28,851 nt of DNA from Polyangiaceae bacterium (GTDB lineage: Bacteria > Myxococcota_A > Polyangia > Polyangiales > Polyangiaceae): assembly GCA_036520475.1 (NCBI GenBank), contig DATDJP010000348.1, positions 1 to 28,851 on the forward strand. Reading direction: 5' to 3'. The position numbers and the translations under genes were made by a program. Positions within the stretch are counted from its first letter, which is position 1. Every line of letters starts with the position of its first letter. The notes under the pieces are model-generated. The model was not told the origin of the DNA. It did no database searches and worked only from the letters and a program-made list of their open reading frames with translations. Positions 260 through 7,236 of the stretch are shown piece by piece.

Positions 260-586
260 ATGTTGCGGATTTATCCTGTTGCTCTCGAATGGCTCAAGGC
301 GGTGCGTCCTTTGATCGCTCAGATTGCTCGTCACGACGGTGACCTGGCGAAGCAGCTCCGGAGGTCGAGCTCGTCCGTAATTCTCAATCTCGGTGAGGGC
401 ATGTATTCGCGAGGGGGACATCGCACGAATGCTTACGGCGTGGCGCTGCGCGAGATGGGTGAGAGCTATTCGGCGCTGCAAGCGGCGCAGGTGCACGGGT
501 ACGTCACAGCGCTCGAGCCTGCCTTTGAAGCGCAGTGTCGCAGGATTCTGGGCACGCTCGTGAAGCTCGCGTTGCCGGCCAAGTGA
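260..586 (+). CDS. Four-helix-bundle protein (23S rRNA intervening-sequence protein family, TIGR02436-like); start moved to the internal ATG
   Basis: The ~108-aa C-terminal part of ORF 65-586 has the family's helical pattern and an NxxEGxxR-like motif (LNLGEGMYSRGG). The upstream 65 codons are Arg/Cys-rich junk typical of a high-GC read-through. AAAGG lies 8-12 nt before ATG260. Confidence 0.55.
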   Translation: MLRIYPVALEWLKAVRPLIAQIARHDGDLAKQLRRSSSSVILNLGEGMYSRGGHRTNAYGVALREMGESYSALQAAQVHGYVTALEPAFEAQCRRILGTLVKLALPAK

Positions 587-684
587 CGGAAACAATGCGC
601 GGTGTCGAGGGGGACACCGCGCATCCAGGGGCTTGCCGACGCGCGACTGGGCTCGGCTCCGTCACCCTCGAGGCCTCCTCAGTT

Positions 685-1671
685 TCAGCGCATGCCGCCG
701 TCGGTCATCCACTTGCGGAGGGCGTCGCGCAGGTACTGCGGCTTCGGATACGCCGTGTTCGCGAAACGGAACGCCCACGGATCACTGCCGCACGCCCAGC
801 CCTGAGCGCCGCCATAGAACTGAAACGGATCGACGAGCGGCGCTGAAACGCCGTTCTTGGCTACGGGTGGACGGTACGGATTGATGTCCGTCGAGTTGTG
901 GCAGCCGGAGCAGCGCATGCCGTCGGAGCGGCCGGCGTAGACGCTGCTCACGATGTCCTGGAGCGAGCTGCCGGCCGCGAACTTGCCGCCCATGGCCGCC
1001 GTGGGCGCAGTGCCGAGGGTGGCGGCGTTCAGCGGTGACGTCCACGTCAGCCGGCACTTGATGCCCGTTTCGTACGCCAGGGTGCTGCGCGTATCGTTCG
1101 CGAAAGCGCTGGCCGCAGTTTGCATGTTGCGGTCCACGTCGATCTGAACCGAGTAGCTGCCGCAAGGCGACAGCAAGTTCGGTGCAATGCGCACGAGCAG
1201 ATAACCGCGCTCGCCTGGGTTGACCGTGTTCGCCGCCGTCGCCGTGCCGCCCCAGTACTGATACAGCGTCGTGGTGTAGATCGAGCCCGCGATGATCACG
1301 CGCCCCGAGGGGCCGTACGCGGGCGTCGTGCCGATGTTGGTGACGTCGATCTGCAGACCCAAGGTGGGCTGCGCTGGCCCGTAGTAGCGCATGGCGCCTT
1401 CCGGGCGCAGGTCGGAGTTGGGCGTCGGGTCGGCCACCACGACGGGTCCAATCGGTCCGACCGGCGGCTTGAAGATGCCGCCGAAGCCGAGCTTGATGGG
1501 TTGCGTGTACTGAGTCTGCAGCGTCGTGGAGCCGGCCGCGTTGAACGTCAGGGACTCCTGGCTTTCGCCCAGCTCGTCGGCGCCGTCGAGGGAGCTGTTT
1601 TCGCTCGCCCCGCCACAAGCGGTCGAGAGTCCAACAGTCAGTAGGGCCAGCAACTCCGTGATTCGACGCAT
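685..1671 (-). CDS. Secreted lipoprotein, hypothetical; C-terminal CXXCH motif, so a possible c-type haem domain
   Basis: Start taken at the internal Met (MRRITELLALLTVGLSTAC...). It has a clear signal peptide and lipobox (LSTAC), and GAGGAG sits 6 nt upstream on the minus strand. The C-terminus contains CSGCH. The upstream 50 codons of ORF 685-1821 are not supported. Confidence 0.6.
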   Translation of the reverse strand: MRRITELLALLTVGLSTACGGASENSSLDGADELGESQESLTFNAAGSTTLQTQYTQPIKLGFGGIFKPPVGPIGPVVVADPTPNSDLRPEGAMRYYGPAQPTLGLQIDVTNIGTTPAYGPSGRVIIAGSIYTTTLYQYWGGTATAANTVNPGERGYLLVRIAPNLLSPCGSYSVQIDVDRNMQTAASAFANDTRSTLAYETGIKCRLTWTSPLNAATLGTAPTAAMGGKFAAGSSLQDIVSSVYAGRSDGMRCSGCHNSTDINPYRPPVAKNGVSAPLVDPFQFYGGAQGWACGSDPWAFRFANTAYPKPQYLRDALRKWMTDGGMR

Positions 1672-1777
1672 TCGGGGATTCTCCTCGTTCGAGCTAGGTC
1701 GAGCCCTTTGCAAGCGCCGAGCCATGGGGCCGGCGGCCGAACAATGACCATTTTTTGCGGCGAATCGCTGGTCTTGG

Positions 1778-1825
1778 TGCAACGCAGGCCGCCGCTGCAA
1801 CCCCGCGTGGGTTGCATGCAACGCA
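1778..1825. promoter_or_regulatory. TGCAAC half-site array (two direct copies plus the palindrome TGCAACCC-CGCGT-GGGTTGCA) in a divergent intergenic region
   Basis: tgcaacgca at 1778-1786, the 7+5+7 palindrome at 1796-1816, and tgcaacgca again at 1817-1825. It lies between two divergently transcribed lipoprotein genes. Confidence 0.3.
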
Positions 1826-2006
1826 TGGAAACGGCGACGCAGGGCCGCTGTGCGTACAGCGCTGTCCGTGCGCAGCGCTTTGCGCCCGCCGGCGTGAGCG
1901 ACACGTGGGGGCTGAAACGCGCCAGGGGCTGAGTTAGGCTGGCGCGCCGCGCGCGCGATTGGCGCGCGTGACCGCGTCAGAGTGACGCACGAGGAGGGGG
2001 ATCAGC

Positions 2007-2570
2007 ATGCGTACGCTAATCGGCGCTTTGATGGCATTGTCGCTCAACGGTATCCACGGCTGCGAGCCTCCTATTCCGCCAGGAGGAGCCGGGGGTAGTC
2101 CTCCCACGGCTTGCGCGATCGCGTTGCCTCCCTTCACGCCGAACAGCCCGTGGGCGTGCGAGCAGACTCGCCCGTGCAGCGCCTTCCACATGGGCCAGGA
2201 TGGCCGGCTCTACACGCAATCCATGCACCTTGAAAACCCCGGCACAATCGAGGACGTGCGCTGCGTGCTTCGCAGCCTGCGCGACGGGACCTCCGGGCAG
2301 TATTCGTTTGTGCTGGATACGCCGTCGATGCCCGGTTTTCTCGTCGATTATCACAGGCTCAATGTGCTTCCCAATGACAATGTCGTGCGCTCCGTCGATC
2401 CGTTTCGCGACATGAGTCCGACGACCGTCAGTCACGCTTACATGACGCGAAAACCCGGGGCATTTTTCGACGCTTGTTTGGCGCTGCAACCGGGGCCCGA
2501 GCTGTTCGCCTGTCTCACGACCTGGTCGGACGCGCTCGCCAGCGGCTGTCCGGTTTGCCCGGCGCCCTGA
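2007..2570 (+). CDS. Secreted (lipo)protein, hypothetical
   Basis: Strong RBS GAGGAGGGGG 6 nt upstream. The N-terminal signal peptide MRTLIGALMALSLNGIHGC ends in a Cys. The overlapping minus ORF 2016-2489 is Arg-rich antisense. Confidence 0.55.
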   Translation: MRTLIGALMALSLNGIHGCEPPIPPGGAGGSPPTACAIALPPFTPNSPWACEQTRPCSAFHMGQDGRLYTQSMHLENPGTIEDVRCVLRSLRDGTSGQYSFVLDTPSMPGFLVDYHRLNVLPNDNVVRSVDPFRDMSPTTVSHAYMTRKPGAFFDACLALQPGPELFACLTTWSDALASGCPVCPAP

Positions 2571-2733
2571 CGACTGCGCAAGCTATCGAAGAGGTCGGAC
2601 GCGCTGCCGGTTTTGGCAGTGCGTGCCGGAACTGACACGCCGCTTGCGGCGCAGCGTCTCGCGTCACGGCGCGCAAACCCTTGTGTAGAGCGCGTCGGGG
2701 CGTTGGTGCGCCGCTTGCTAAAGCAGGCCGTCG

Positions 2734-3162
2734 ATGACTGACGTACTGATTTGTCCCGCCTGTCGTGGCCCGGTCCTGCGCACTTCAGCGGCGTGCCCAC
2801 ACTGCAGCACCGCTCTGATCAAAACGAGCCGCGGTCGAGTGGTCTTGCACTTGAAGCAGTTCGCGCTGGCGGCCTCGGCGAGCATGACCTTGACGGCCTG
2901 CTATGGCGGGCCGGTGCCGCCCACGGAGTGGGAGCCGCCGCCGGGCACTGCTGGCACGGGCGGGGTTCTGTATCCGCGCTGTGATCAGCTCGCCGAGAGC
3001 CTGCGCACGCCGGATCTCGATGCCGACGAGTATTGCGGGATCTTCGATTGTGACGAAGAAGATCCGTCGGTTCACGCCAACGCGGTCGACGTTCCCGGCG
3101 ACGGCGTGGATCAGGATTGTACGGGCTCGGACGCGCCGCGTCCCCCGGACGCTGGTCAGTAG
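2734..3162 (+). CDS. Small zinc-ribbon / TM-lipobox / MopE-like Cys-Asp-rich metal-binding motif protein
   Basis: N-terminal CPACRG...CPHC zinc ribbon (CxxC-x11-CxxC). A hydrophobic segment ends in the lipobox-like LTAC. The C-terminus DEYCGIFDCDEEDPSVHANAVDVPGDGVDQDCTGSD matches the myxobacterial putative metal-binding (MopE-type, DCDDxD...PGAxExCDGxDxDCDG) motif. Its stop lies 8 nt before the rSAM start. An alternative GTG start at 2839 would give a pure lipoprotein. Confidence 0.5.
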   Translation: MTDVLICPACRGPVLRTSAACPHCSTALIKTSRGRVVLHLKQFALAASASMTLTACYGGPVPPTEWEPPPGTAGTGGVLYPRCDQLAESLRTPDLDADEYCGIFDCDEEDPSVHANAVDVPGDGVDQDCTGSDAPRPPDAGQ

Positions 3163-3170
3163 CGGACATC

Positions 3171-4445
3171 ATGGGCGCGGCGACCGGTGTGCCGGTGTAC
3201 AGCCGGGCGGAGCAAGCCGCCCGGCGCCGGCTGCGCGTGGTGGATACGGCGCGCGTTCCGGCGTACGTGGTCTGGGAGCTCACGCTGCAATGCGATCACG
3301 CTTGCCATCACTGCGGCTCGCGGGCGGCCCGTCCCCGGCCGGGTGAGCTCACGACCGAGCAGGCGCTGGCCGTCGTGGCAGAGCTCGCCAAGCTCGGCAC
3401 ACGCGAGCTGGTGTTGATCGGCGGAGAAGCCTATCTGCACCCCGGGTTTCTCGATGTGGTGCGCGCTGCAGCGCAGCATGGCATCACGCCGATCATGACC
3501 ACGGGTGGCGCCGGCATCACGCCCGAGCTCGCGGTGGCCATGAAGACGGCGGGCATGGCGCGCGTTTCCGTCAGCGTCGATGGACTTGCGGCTCAGCACG
3601 ATCGGATCCGGGCCAAGCGCGGCTCGTTCGCTGCCGCGACGGACGCTTTGCGCAGCCTGAAGGAGGCGTCGATCGACACGGCCGCGAACACGAACATCAA
3701 CCGCATCAACCTGGCGGATCTGGAGCTTCTGTATCAACACCTGCGCGATCTCGGGATTTTATCCTGGCAGGTCCAGTTGACGGTGCCGCTCGGGCGCGGG
3801 GCGGATCATCCCGACATGCTGCTCCAGCCCTGGATGCTCCTCGACCTGCTGCCGCGACTCGACGCGCTCAAGACGCGCGCGCTCCGCGACGGCATTCTGC
3901 TGATGCCGGGGAACAACCTGGGTTACTTCGGACCAGAGGAGTTCCGGCTGCGCTCGCAGAAGCTCGCGGGCTCGGACCACTTTCGCGGCTGCCAGGCTGG
4001 CCGCTTCGTGATGGGGATCGAGTCGGACGGCGGAATCAAGGGTTGTCCATCGCTACAGAGCGCCAGCTACGTCGTCGGTCGCTGGGGCGCGGAAGGTGAC
4101 GTCGAGACGCTCTGGAACAGCGAATCCGACGCGCTGCGCTTCAACGAGCGGAGCCGCAAACGCGAGCTCTGGGGCCGCTGTGCGAGCTGCGAGTTCGCCA
4201 AGGTGTGCCAGGCCGGCTGTAGTTTCACGGCTCACGCGTTCTTTGGCCGACGCGGGAACAATCCATACTGCCACTACCGTGCGATTCGCCTGCGACGTGA
4301 GGGCCTGCGCGAGCGGCTCGTCATGAAGCGCCGCGCGCCCGGCGTGCCCTTCGATCACGCACAATTCGGCATCGTCGAGGAGCCGTTCGACGCTCCGGTG
4401 GACGACGTGCCCGTGGACCTGATCCAGCTTCGTAGAAGACGCTGA
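3171..4445 (+). CDS. Radical SAM enzyme with C-terminal SPASM domain (PqqE/MftC/anSME-like peptide or protein maturase)
   Basis: CxxxCxxC at WELTLQCDHACHHCGS. GGE motif (LIGGEAYLHPG). PqqE-like core. C-terminal Cys cluster GCQAG...GIKGCPS...CASCEFAKVCQAGCSF is typical of SPASM auxiliary Fe-S sites. Start placed at ATG3171, just after the upstream gene's stop; ORF 3117 overlaps upstream in frame. Confidence 0.85.
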   Translation: MGAATGVPVYSRAEQAARRRLRVVDTARVPAYVVWELTLQCDHACHHCGSRAARPRPGELTTEQALAVVAELAKLGTRELVLIGGEAYLHPGFLDVVRAAAQHGITPIMTTGGAGITPELAVAMKTAGMARVSVSVDGLAAQHDRIRAKRGSFAAATDALRSLKEASIDTAANTNINRINLADLELLYQHLRDLGILSWQVQLTVPLGRGADHPDMLLQPWMLLDLLPRLDALKTRALRDGILLMPGNNLGYFGPEEFRLRSQKLAGSDHFRGCQAGRFVMGIESDGGIKGCPSLQSASYVVGRWGAEGDVETLWNSESDALRFNERSRKRELWGRCASCEFAKVCQAGCSFTAHAFFGRRGNNPYCHYRAIRLRREGLRERLVMKRRAPGVPFDHAQFGIVEEPFDAPVDDVPVDLIQLRRRR

Positions 4446-4504
4446 TCGGCTGCGCACACGCTTGTCCCTTTGTATGCCGTGACGGCGGCTATACGGTCCC
4501 GGGC

Positions 4505-5827
4505 ATGGCATCGGCGTCGTCGTTGGGGCTTCGAACCTGGGTAATTTTACCCGCTCTTTTGTGCGCGTGCGGTGAGCCCGTGCTCTATCGATCCGACATC
4601 CGGCCGGTGACCAGCGTCGCTGAGGCAAAACCCGGCGTTTTCATCCCGCCGTTTCGTGAGTGCAAGAGCCCGTTGCCGGGCGAGACGGGCAACGGCCCGA
4701 ATGGGGCGGTCTGCACCAACGTCGCGATCTCGGGCAGTACGGAGGCCGGCAAGTCGTTCGCCGCCTATGCTGCGTGTGACGTCGTGCGCACGCAGCGGCC
4801 GTACTGGTCCGCGCCGCCCGCGCGCGTTCCCGCTGCGGACGACCCGCGTCTCTCCGATGCGGCGTACGTCGACGACCTCGCGTGGGTCAAAAGTCAAATC
4901 GCGTCGAGCGGCTGCGTTTGTTGTCACGACTCGCGCGTCGTCGCGTCGGCGCAGTGGGACATCGACCGGGGACCGCTCTGGCTCGACTCGTTGTCCGATC
5001 CGGGGCTCGCCCTGTTCACCGGCCTCGCGGACTCGACGGTGCTGGGTGCATACCCGAAGCACGAGAACAACGGCTTCGATCGCACGATCACCGGCATTCC
5101 GACCAACGACACGCCGCGCATGCAGGCCATCCTGTTTCGCGAGCTCGAGCGGCGCGGTATCACCCGCGAGCAAGCAGCGGCCGTGCCGCCATTCGGGGGG
5201 CCGATTTACGCGAATCAGGTGACACCGCCGGGCATCTGCACGGCAGGGGAGGGCGTGACGAGCGACGGCCGCGTCCTCTGGAAAGCGGGCGGCGCGCGCT
5301 ACGTGTACGTGATGGCGGAGAGCGCGAAGAATCCCGGTGTACCGCCGAACCTCGATTTGCCGAGCGGTACGATTTGGCGGCTCGACGTGCTCGCACGCGC
5401 CGACGCGGTCCAGAGCGGGATCGCCTACGGAACGACGCCGCCCGGCACCTTCCAGGCCGTACCCGACCGGGTGCGCGCCCCGCTGCTGGTGGCCGGTACG
5501 AAGTATCACTTCACCGTGCTCAGGGATGTCGGTGTGCCGAGCACGAACTGCATCTTCACATATCCCGCCGCTCCGGCGCCGGTGACGGATGCTGGCCCCG
5601 GACCCGGGCCGAGCTGCGACGCCGGCACGGCGCTCGGACGCGCGTGCACCGACGACGCGGCGTGCGGCTGTGGAGCCCCGTATTGCGCCCTCCAGCCGGG
5701 CCAGACGCAGGGGTATTGCACGGTCACGGGTTGCAAAGAAAACCCGGGCGTCTGTGCTGCCGGGTGGTCGTGTTTCGACCTCGGCGTCTTCGCGCCCGGT
5801 CAGCCGTCCATTTGCACCAAGCCGTAG
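4505..5827 (+). CDS. Secreted lipoprotein with one CXXCH (planctomycete-cytochrome-like PSCyt signature) and a C-terminal 10-Cys domain
   Basis: Signal peptide and lipobox MASASSLGLRTWVILPALLCAC. AWVKSQIASSGCVCCHDS...LWLDSLSD resembles the PSCyt1 pattern. The C-terminal ~70 aa are Cys-rich. It starts 60 bp after the rSAM gene. The overlapping 526-aa minus ORF is rejected as antisense. Confidence 0.65.
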   Translation: MASASSLGLRTWVILPALLCACGEPVLYRSDIRPVTSVAEAKPGVFIPPFRECKSPLPGETGNGPNGAVCTNVAISGSTEAGKSFAAYAACDVVRTQRPYWSAPPARVPAADDPRLSDAAYVDDLAWVKSQIASSGCVCCHDSRVVASAQWDIDRGPLWLDSLSDPGLALFTGLADSTVLGAYPKHENNGFDRTITGIPTNDTPRMQAILFRELERRGITREQAAAVPPFGGPIYANQVTPPGICTAGEGVTSDGRVLWKAGGARYVYVMAESAKNPGVPPNLDLPSGTIWRLDVLARADAVQSGIAYGTTPPGTFQAVPDRVRAPLLVAGTKYHFTVLRDVGVPSTNCIFTYPAAPAPVTDAGPGPGPSCDAGTALGRACTDDAACGCGAPYCALQPGQTQGYCTVTGCKENPGVCAAGWSCFDLGVFAPGQPSICTKP

Positions 5828-6181
5828 GGATCCGTCCCTGAATCCGTTCCGGCCCGTGACGTGAACGTCTGAGCATTCATCGCATCGCGTCCATGTTTTA
5901 GGGCGATGACCTGGACTTTCTGCAGGCGCGCGCCGAGCGCCGTGGGGGCGTGAAGCCCGCCGGAGCACTCGTCGGTAAAGCCGCCGAGGGGCTGCCACGT
6001 GGTCCACGACGTCCTTGACGCGCAGCGCACCGGCGAGGTCGCCTACAGCGAAGGTGGCGGCGACGTCGCAGCGCACCGCGAAGATGCGCGCGTGAGATCG
6101 CGAGAACACGACGCCATCCGGCGCCACCCTGAGTTGTGGCTGAGTTGTGGGGTGGCGCTGGTAGCCACCCCGCGTCGTCTA

Positions 6182-7032: not shown

Positions 7033-7236
7033 GACGTGAAGGTGAACGTGAACGGGCCCGAATTTCGGACGCCGTCAGCCCGCAAAACTCCTCCCCACTG
7101 CCGCCCGCGTCGCCCCGCGCAAACCCCAAAAAATCAAGCCGCCCCAAGTATCGAGCTTCCTTCAAACTCCGGGCGACTTGTGCCCAATCATCAGACGGAC
7201 ACGTTCACGTTCACGTTCACGGGGGGGCCGATTCGG
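7033..7236. repeat. Paired hexamer-repeat elements: (GTGAAC)3 plus a GGGCCCGAAnTTCGGG palindrome at 7033-7068, and (GTTCAC)3 plus GGGGCCGATTCGGG at 7197-7236, separated by a C-rich 128-bp spacer, 80 bp upstream of the DAHP synthase gene
   Basis: Read directly: cagacgTGAAGGTGAACGTGAACGggcccgaatttcgg versus cagacgGACACGTTCACGTTCACGTTCACGggggggccgattcggg. Flanks are direct and the core is inverted. Confidence 0.5.

Follow-up and report, generated by a model that had tools for sequence, protein, structure and literature searches.

A radical SAM/SPASM enzyme and its zinc-ribbon partner protein as a predicted tyramine splicease pair in Myxococcota

In this study we analysed a stretch of 28,851 nucleotides from a Polyangiaceae bacterium (contig DATDJP010000348.1, assembly GCA_036520475.1; in the following called the window), focusing on two adjoining genes, one encoding a small protein of 142 aa (2734-3162) and one encoding a radical S-adenosylmethionine (rSAM) enzyme with a SPASM domain (424 aa from its ATG, 3171-4445). 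With a probability of roughly 0.6, we consider these two genes to form a binary pair of the splicease type, in which the enzyme would excise tyramine at Cys56-Tyr57-Gly58 of the small protein and Cys56 would also serve as the lipobox cysteine. We regard the small protein as the likely substrate because the Tyr-Gly of this site is invariant among its homologues while the residue in front of it (the X of an XYG motif) varies, because its tail is hypervariable, and because XYG motifs are found beside related enzymes. The original prediction, made from the DNA letters alone, had combined both genes with a downstream 440-aa lipoprotein gene into a three-gene operon. The results below support its assignment of the enzyme to the peptide- or protein-modifying type of rSAM/SPASM proteins and its view of the upstream small protein as the partner and likely substrate, and they replace the three-gene operon by a conserved unit of two genes.

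The enzyme is related to maturases with XYG-bearing neighbours

The 424-aa enzyme matches the Pfam families Radical_SAM (78 bits) and SPASM (22.5 bits). The three cysteines of the rSAM cluster motif (C41, C45 and C48) and the seven SPASM cysteines are invariant or nearly so in alignment A1, in which the window enzyme and the TIGR04103, TIGR03913 and outgroup proteins have 67 invariant columns in common, among them columns of the C-terminal PFD region. The best NCBIfam models were TIGR04103 (nif11-class peptide radical SAM maturase 3), matched over the full length with 441.5 bits (E 2e-132; curated cut-off 725), and TIGR03913 (GDL motif peptide-associated radical SAM/SPASM maturase), matched with 350.8 bits and thus below its cut-off of 591.75. 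The pair does not belong to the TIGR03913 system, as the small protein shows neither a DUF1843 match nor a GDL signature. Searching 1.84 billion cluster representatives, we obtained 436 relatives at E<1e-30, and 19 out of 20 scanned relatives match both models. With the Nostoc edaphicum protein P0392, named TIGR04103 by NCBI, the window enzyme shares 45% identity over aa 31-410 (E 1e-125). Among solved structures, SkfB was the best match by sequence, with 72 bits. One relative, P0133 (L083, 4001-5371), carries Ser, Asp and Asp at the positions equivalent to C274, C292 and C350 and may, judging from these replacements, be devoid of an auxiliary cluster.

An enzyme of the PqqE, MftC or QhpD kind without recognisable homology to described maturation systems had originally been proposed, and neither part of this proposal held. 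The PqqE model TIGR02109 scored 70 bits (cut-off 381), the MftC model TIGR03962 scored 117.8 bits (cut-off 265), the match to the PqqE structure in the PDB reached only 38.5 bits, and QhpD was outside the best 25 models. Maturation of the QhpD/QhpC type was rejected on these grounds and on the rarity of the Cys/Asp motif in partner tails described below. The heme-modifying rSAM enzymes AhbD (144 bits, cut-off 500) and NirJ (116 bits, cut-off 515) were rejected as well, with hem genes nearby in about 5 of the 83 loci. Homology to a described kind of system is in fact recognisable, given the 45% identity to TIGR04103 enzymes, which stand beside XYG-bearing Nif11 precursors, and the invariant XYG in the enzyme's own partner.

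The XYG rule for splice sites is established for spliceases (PMC11414181, PMC10533398, PMC9811515). Type I systems consist of Nif11/NHLP precursors with MYG or LYG sites and a small Y protein, and binary types have a leader helix instead of the Y protein (PMC11414181, PMC10533398, PMC9811515, PMC11626197). PlpX represents a SPASM rSAM subclass (InterPro IPR026482) that is found together with Nif11/NHLP precursors (PMC11002830, PMC10849128), and a survey from 2022, as summarised in PMC10849128, found 189 genera in which PlpX-like enzymes have neighbours rich in YG. In the Nostoc edaphicum locus (L092), the core of the Nif11 precursor beside the rSAM gene contains PLYGV, PMYGI and PMYGV, and a 54-aa gene follows the rSAM gene; this layout matches the published type I arrangement PlpA/PlpX/PlpY with MYG/LYG sites (PMC10533398, PMC11414181).

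YG motifs were also present in neighbours of four of the five more distant relatives that we examined. A true TIGR03913 member (L086, 771 bits) is followed by two DUF1843 proteins with two and five LYG motifs, the second of which has one PYG in addition. The 61-aa peptide encoded upstream of P0133 (L083) ends with PLYGVWV, the neighbour of P0131 (L090) contains repeated G[DVI]YG[SG]G, and the neighbour of P0127 (L087) is a zinc-ribbon lipoprotein with VPYG and PPYG.

A small partner gene accompanies the enzyme across Myxococcota

To the window we compared 80 genome loci and two metagenome loci of rSAM homologues, in which partners were searched for by an iterative profile search over open reading frames (ORFs) located at most 1.5 kb from the rSAM gene. 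The main analysis found a homologue of the small protein encoded directly upstream of the rSAM gene in 80 out of 83 loci; with two later close relatives included, the count is 81 out of 85. This pairing is far beyond chance. The partner genes are co-directional with or divergent from the rSAM gene about equally often, their motif subtype and orientation track the rSAM tree, and metagenome-assembled genomes (MAGs) with two rSAM copies contain two distinct partners. A simple search with the small protein as single query found only 5 close homologues, and in an all-against-all clustering of the neighbouring ORFs, in which the divergent small partner fell below the clustering threshold, no conserved neighbour appeared besides the rSAM protein. 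Gene neighbourhood across relatives had been named beforehand as one of the checks able to refute the original prediction, and the three-gene arrangement is not kept: the 440-aa gene and two further neighbours, encoding proteins of 378 and 187 aa, gave no tblastn matches in the 82 related loci, and the ORF clustering revealed no conserved third gene, so that the three-gene operon was rejected. Because the partner is present in nearly all loci, its subtype follows the rSAM tree and the 440-aa gene is not kept, we conclude that the conserved unit comprises two genes.

Homologues of the rSAM enzyme number in the thousands, with approximately 60% identity across Myxococcota. The pair itself occurs in Myxococcota, in one Leptospira locus, which shows AT-rich codon usage, and in one MAG binned as Sericytochromatia; carriers are found in many Myxococcota lineages, cultured ones among them being Corallococcus, Archangium, Vitiosangium, Citreicoccus and Plesiocystis. 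Some loci contain two tandem partner genes (L081 at 5433-5944; L014, L067, L079, L080), each with its own zinc ribbon and TLMACYG, the second copy in L079 having TSCACYG instead. In L081 the rSAM gene is followed by genes for a DUF4136 protein and a PAP2 phosphatase and by hemE-hemH-hemY. In a single clade (L038 at 456-3368 and about 11 Kofleriaceae-type loci), a gene for a secreted M36 (fungalysin-like) metallopeptidase of approximately 960 aa is located approximately 2.6 kb upstream of the rSAM gene, and at least some of these loci, e.g., L038, have partners with MopE-type tails.

The partner protein joins a zinc ribbon, a signal segment, a C-Y-G site and a variable tail

The order of elements is conserved among the partners: a zinc ribbon (C-x2-C-x-G-F-x-P...C-P-x-C), basic residues, 13 to 25 uncharged residues and the motif T-L-M-A-C-Y-G-x-P. 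This fits the architecture proposed originally, in which a cytoplasmic zinc ribbon is followed by a lipobox segment and an exported tail, and our sequence comparison supports such a predicted topology. The full zinc-ribbon motif was present in 75 aligned partner sequences. Tyr and Gly of the C-Y-G site are invariant (78 of 78 partners), and the positions in front of Tyr are strongly conserved, with Ala at -2 in 77, Cys at -1 in 74, Thr at -5 in 74 and Leu at -4 in 70 partners. The residue X of XYG is Cys in 74 partners, Ile in two, Leu in one and His in one.

Most partners show the sequence features of a lipoprotein, i.e., a basic n-region, an uncharged h-region and L-[MSTA]-A-C. In the four variant partners (X = Leu, Ile or His), the hydrophobic stretch ends in a Cys located 3 to 8 residues further upstream, and the lipobox matches are weaker. 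A Cys closes the hydrophobic stretch even where X is not Cys or YG lies far downstream (L017, L029, L056, L066, L087), and in the outgroup locus L087 approximately 30 residues separate the lipobox Cys from two X-Y-G sites. Since the Cys stands apart from YG in the variants and in L087, the lipobox Cys and the Y-G are separable elements that coincide in the main clade.

The tail of the partners is hypervariable, ranges from 26 to more than 150 residues and is rich in Asp, Gly, Ala and Pro. Its number of Cys residues is almost always even (0, 2, 4, 6, 8 or 14), in agreement with an exported region that holds disulfide bonds. The MopE module that had been highlighted in the window protein is present as a marginal Pfam match (Cu-binding_MopE, 28.5 bits, just over the cut-off of 27). 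As a conserved target of the enzyme it did not stand, since no more than 16 of the 82 partner tails contain a MopE-type Cys/Asp motif and Cys is absent from 10 tails. Going by this distribution, the module appears to be a clade-specific accessory and not part of the conserved core.

Zinc ribbons also occur on related enzymes

Related enzymes may carry a zinc ribbon themselves. TIGR03913-like enzymes in alignment A1 have a C-terminal C-x2-C-x2-[FY]...C-P-x-C ribbon. By pattern, a C-terminal CxxC...CxxC element was found in 13 out of 54 full-length representatives, ten of which match the TIGR03913-like ribbon pattern, and a distinct Cys-rich C-terminal variant is present in four representatives (P0189, P0230, P0231, P0233). 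The ribbon is located at the C-terminus of P0135, P0130, P0138, P0140, P0141, P0143, P0144, P0146 and P0151 and at the N-terminus of P0136, where the gene context of the fusion locus (L094) gave no pointer to a substrate. A profile built from the partner ribbons matches two of the C-terminal enzyme ribbons weakly (E about 3e-4 in a set of 394 proteins). Considering this distribution, the zinc ribbon appears to be a domain that moves between enzyme and presumed substrate across clades. That some clades carry the ribbon on the enzyme and the window clade carries it on the presumed substrate suggests a docking role on the enzyme, analogous to that of the leader helix or Y protein in published systems, in which such an element binds the splicease and activates it (PMC11414181).

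Proposed pathway and alternative explanations

From these observations the following sequence of events can be proposed. The cytoplasmic rSAM enzyme would bind the newly made small protein, probably via the N-terminal zinc ribbon and the adjoining helix, and would then remove a tyramine equivalent (C8H9NO, -135 Da; -135.07) from Tyr57, leaving an alpha-ketoamide. As C-Y-G stands at the end of a lipoprotein-type signal segment, the spliced protein would probably be exported through this segment, lipidated on the same Cys56 and cleaved by signal peptidase II. The outcome might be a protein that is anchored in the membrane, bears an N-terminal electrophilic ketoamide and has, outside the cytoplasm, a variable and acidic tail with disulfide bonds. 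Since characterised spliceotides inhibit serine and cysteine proteases (PMC11626197), our guess by analogy is that the spliced protein acts as a membrane-tethered inhibitor of such proteases. Precedent for precursors of RiPPs (peptides that are synthesized by ribosomes and then modified post-translationally) that pass through the lipoprotein pathway is given by the DAG-RiPPs, which are modified by MNIO enzymes (PMC13056109). Only tentatively do we extend the proposal to its full form, i.e., a membrane-anchored ketoamide product (e.g., a tethered inhibitor or regulator of an envelope protease of the serine or cysteine type) with the ribbon as a trans-acting recognition and activation module, and splicing of an exported structural protein instead of a secreted RiPP.

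Several observations weigh against the splicease interpretation. Four loci (L010, L044, L062, L091) have no adjacent partner; in L010, L044 and L062 no zinc-ribbon or YG ORF was found near the rSAM gene and a relaxed tblastn over the full loci returned nothing, and on the short 4.5-kb contig of L091 no such ORF was found anywhere, with relaxed tblastn negative as well. The window enzyme scores below the curated TIGR04103 cut-off and forms a clade of its own, in which the reaction could differ. Our equation of TIGR04103 with the PlpX family is based on the family name, the InterPro subclass and the matching Nostoc locus, PlpX itself being compared by description only. The high identity across the phylum and the housekeeping-like chromosomal setting, with genes for DAHP synthase, G6PD, 6PGD and a LysR regulator nearby, are unusual for RiPP maturases. 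The DUF1843 neighbour of P0130 (L088, 758-937) has N-M-Y-A-G where relatives show L-Y-G-V, which might represent a naturally occurring X-Y-A form of the site. In addition, Pfam and NCBIfam revealed no Nif11/NHLP leader on the small protein, and a PlpY-like gene was not found, the 54-aa gene of L092 having no counterpart among the small ORFs. With regard to the lipoprotein part, the lipobox Cys usually lies between residues 15 and 35. Here the layout is atypical, with a ribbon of approximately 35 residues ahead and the Cys at position 56; the predicted splice site is located at the very end of the hydrophobic signal segment, and the spliced residue (alpha-keto-beta-Cys) may or may not be accepted by Lgt and LspA.

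Splicing might also occur on a protein that is not a lipoprotein, the segment being a signal anchor or an enzyme-bound leader helix and the Cys being kept only as the X of the splice site. Besides the late position of the Cys, the long N-terminal domain in front of a signal peptide, unusual in itself, the conservation of T-L-M-A beyond what a lipobox needs and the use of a leader helix by published spliceases (PMC11414181) speak for this explanation. It is nevertheless unlikely, although it deserves some weight, since the Cys still closes the hydrophobic stretch in the loci where X is not Cys or YG is distant, and since the even Cys counts and the acidic, Pro-rich composition of the tails are typical of exported proteins.

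We consider it rather improbable that the enzyme modifies the small protein by another chemistry, whether at C-Y-G, close to it or within the Cys/Asp tail, such as the formation of a thioether (sactionine, ranthionine or a QhpD-type Cys-to-Asp/Glu link) or of a cross-link centred on Tyr. SPASM enzymes often make thioethers, the window protein carries the Cys/Asp-rich MopE module, many partners have a second Cys 4-5 residues past the Tyr, and the sub-cut-off score would allow for a diverged function. However, the module is confined to a minority of tails and some tails have no Cys at all, QhpD and SkfB score poorly, the closest families have XYG neighbours, and the invariant element is Y-G and not a pair of Cys and acceptor. 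A similarly low probability is assigned to the small protein being a membrane anchor or regulator that recruits the enzyme via its zinc ribbon, with the enzyme acting on a tetrapyrrole, a lipid or the like in a housekeeping role. The phylum-wide identity and neighbourhood of the enzyme agree with such a role, as do zinc ribbons fused to related enzymes, hemE, hemH and hemY downstream in L081, hemE downstream in about five loci, and the label 'heme biosynthesis protein' that TIGR04103 homologues bear in some databases. Yet AhbD and NirJ score far below TIGR04103, the adjacency to hem genes is restricted to a small clade, and the invariant T-L-M-A-C-Y-G, needless for a pure anchor, matches the substrate motif of related families; these low scores and the rarity of the adjacency led us to drop the idea of a heme pathway, which came from the L081 genes. 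The splicease pair remains the interpretation that we favour.

If this interpretation is correct, splicing would extend to a protein family conserved across many Myxococcota lineages and Leptospira. The residue turned into a ketoamide would be the lipobox Cys, and a single residue would thus be shared by radical backbone editing and the maturation of a lipoprotein. Moreover, a compact system of two genes, with one sharply defined site and the ribbon as its candidate recognition module, might be of use for protein engineering with beta-amino acids.

Gene layout and local neighbours in the window

The three ORFs of the originally proposed operon are all present on the same strand at the predicted positions (Table 1), with measured gaps of 8 nt between the small gene and the rSAM gene and 59 nt between the rSAM gene and the 440-aa gene. 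An alternative longer rSAM ORF starts with TTG at 3117. No terminator-like site was detected in the 8-nt or the 59-nt gap by promoter/terminator scanning, and the promoter/terminator and Rfam scans of the window gave nothing informative. All motifs that had been pointed out in the three proteins were also found: the CX3CX2C and seven-Cys SPASM patterns, segments resembling a lipobox, a single CVCCH and a C-terminal set of ten Cys residues.

Table 1 Coordinates of the predicted splicease pair, its sequence elements and local neighbours in the window.
Feature	Position	Strand	Description or basis
Partner/putative substrate gene, 142 aa	2734..3162	+	zinc-ribbon leader, lipoprotein-type signal segment, C-Y-G site, variable acidic tail
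Zinc ribbon, aa 7-24, CPAC...CPHC	2752..2805	+	partner alignment; weak Pfam zinc-ribbon matches
Uncharged h-region and lipobox L-T-A-C, aa 43-56	2860..2901	+	basic residues ahead; sequence
Cys56-Tyr57-Gly58 (tgc tat ggc), predicted XYG splice site	2899..2907	+	partner motif statistics
MopE-type Cys/Asp putative metal-binding motif, aa 105-133	3046..3132	+	Pfam PF11617, 28.5 bits
Radical SAM/SPASM enzyme, 424 aa, predicted tyramine splicease ('X protein')	3171..4445	+	Pfam, NCBIfam, homology
CX3CX2C radical SAM cluster motif (C41, C45, C48)	3291..3314	+	invariant in alignment A1
SPASM domain, seven Cys (C274, C292, C337, C340, C346, C350, C367)	3990..4271	+	Pfam SPASM aa 274-341
440-aa lipoprotein gene	4505..5827	+	lipobox LLCAC, CVCCH
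378-aa protein gene	685..1821	-	CSGCH motif
187-aa protein gene	2007..2570	+	
Insertion relative to L095	5818..7261		
HNH endonuclease ORF, 210 aa	6182..6814	-	RuvA_C-like domain

The 440-aa protein has a single CVCCH and ten Cys within its last approximately 75 residues, and no Pfam or NCBIfam family matched it. Together with the 187-aa gene, its gene is syntenic only in contig L095, where the rSAM enzyme is 88% identical to that of the window; at 85%, 81% and 76% rSAM identity a different gene is found downstream. The 87% identity of the 440-aa protein to its L095 counterpart indicates a real, constrained gene. It is a local neighbour, with no linkage to rSAM past the closest relatives. The 378-aa and 187-aa proteins each have an N-terminal hydrophobic segment ending in Cys, which makes them lipoprotein-like, and no family match; the 187-aa protein is 72% identical to its L095 counterpart. 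Compared with L095, where approximately 30 bp separate the 440-aa gene from the DAHP synthase gene, the window contains an insertion of approximately 1.44 kb, which encodes the HNH endonuclease and contains hexamer arrays of (ACGTGA)x3.5 and the reverse-complement unit (CACGTT)x3.7 (at 7034-7054 and 7200-7221), approximately 145 bp apart. This insertion may be a mobile HNH element.

Comparison with known systems

In the literature searched (titles and abstracts of the top-ranked results), we found no published link of spliceotides with Myxococcota, lipoproteins or zinc ribbons, although the Myxococcota clade may already be listed in the 2022 survey. With the type I spliceotides (PlpA/PlpX/PlpY, PcpAXY of Pleurocapsa, and the Nostoc locus), the window pair shares homology over the full length of the enzyme and an adjoining substrate gene. 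In contrast to type I, it has no Nif11/NHLP leader and no PlpY-like gene and instead contains a zinc ribbon and a lipoprotein-type signal segment; the partner has a single site with X = Cys and a predicted exported tail of 30-150 residues, and the enzyme, which scores below the TIGR04103 cut-off, is found phylum-wide in a housekeeping setting and not in a RiPP cluster. The binary type II systems of Rheinheimera (RhaX/RhaA, RasX/RcsX; PMC11414181, PMC11626197) resemble it in having two components without a Y protein and an N-terminal substrate element proposed to dock on and activate the enzyme, RhaX being compared by description only. In RhaA this element is a leader alpha-helix, whereas the candidate in the window pair is a zinc ribbon that is fused to the enzyme in related clades, and the RiPP clusters of Rheinheimera yield short peptides that are secreted, unlike the window partner.

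The TIGR03913/DUF1843 system (L086) belongs to the same rSAM superfamily, has partners with repeated LYG and contains a zinc ribbon of similar pattern. There, however, the ribbon is located at the C-terminus of the enzyme, and the partners are cytoplasmic-looking, helical and have several sites. The DAG-RiPPs (PMC13056109) offer a parallel for the predicted route of the product, as they are modified in the cytoplasm, carry a signal peptide ending in a lipobox, are exported and are lipidated on the N-terminal Cys via Lgt/LspA/Lnt. They differ in being modified by an MNIO and not an rSAM enzyme, and at residues far from the lipobox Cys, whereas in the window protein the lipobox Cys itself would be modified and the signal segment follows a folded zinc ribbon. 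In the QhpD/QhpC system of quinohemoprotein amine dehydrogenase, too, a SPASM rSAM enzyme acts in the cytoplasm on a small Cys-containing protein that is exported afterwards, but we found no specific sequence relationship to this system, the Cys/Asp-Glu region of the partner is not conserved and no dehydrogenase subunits are encoded nearby.

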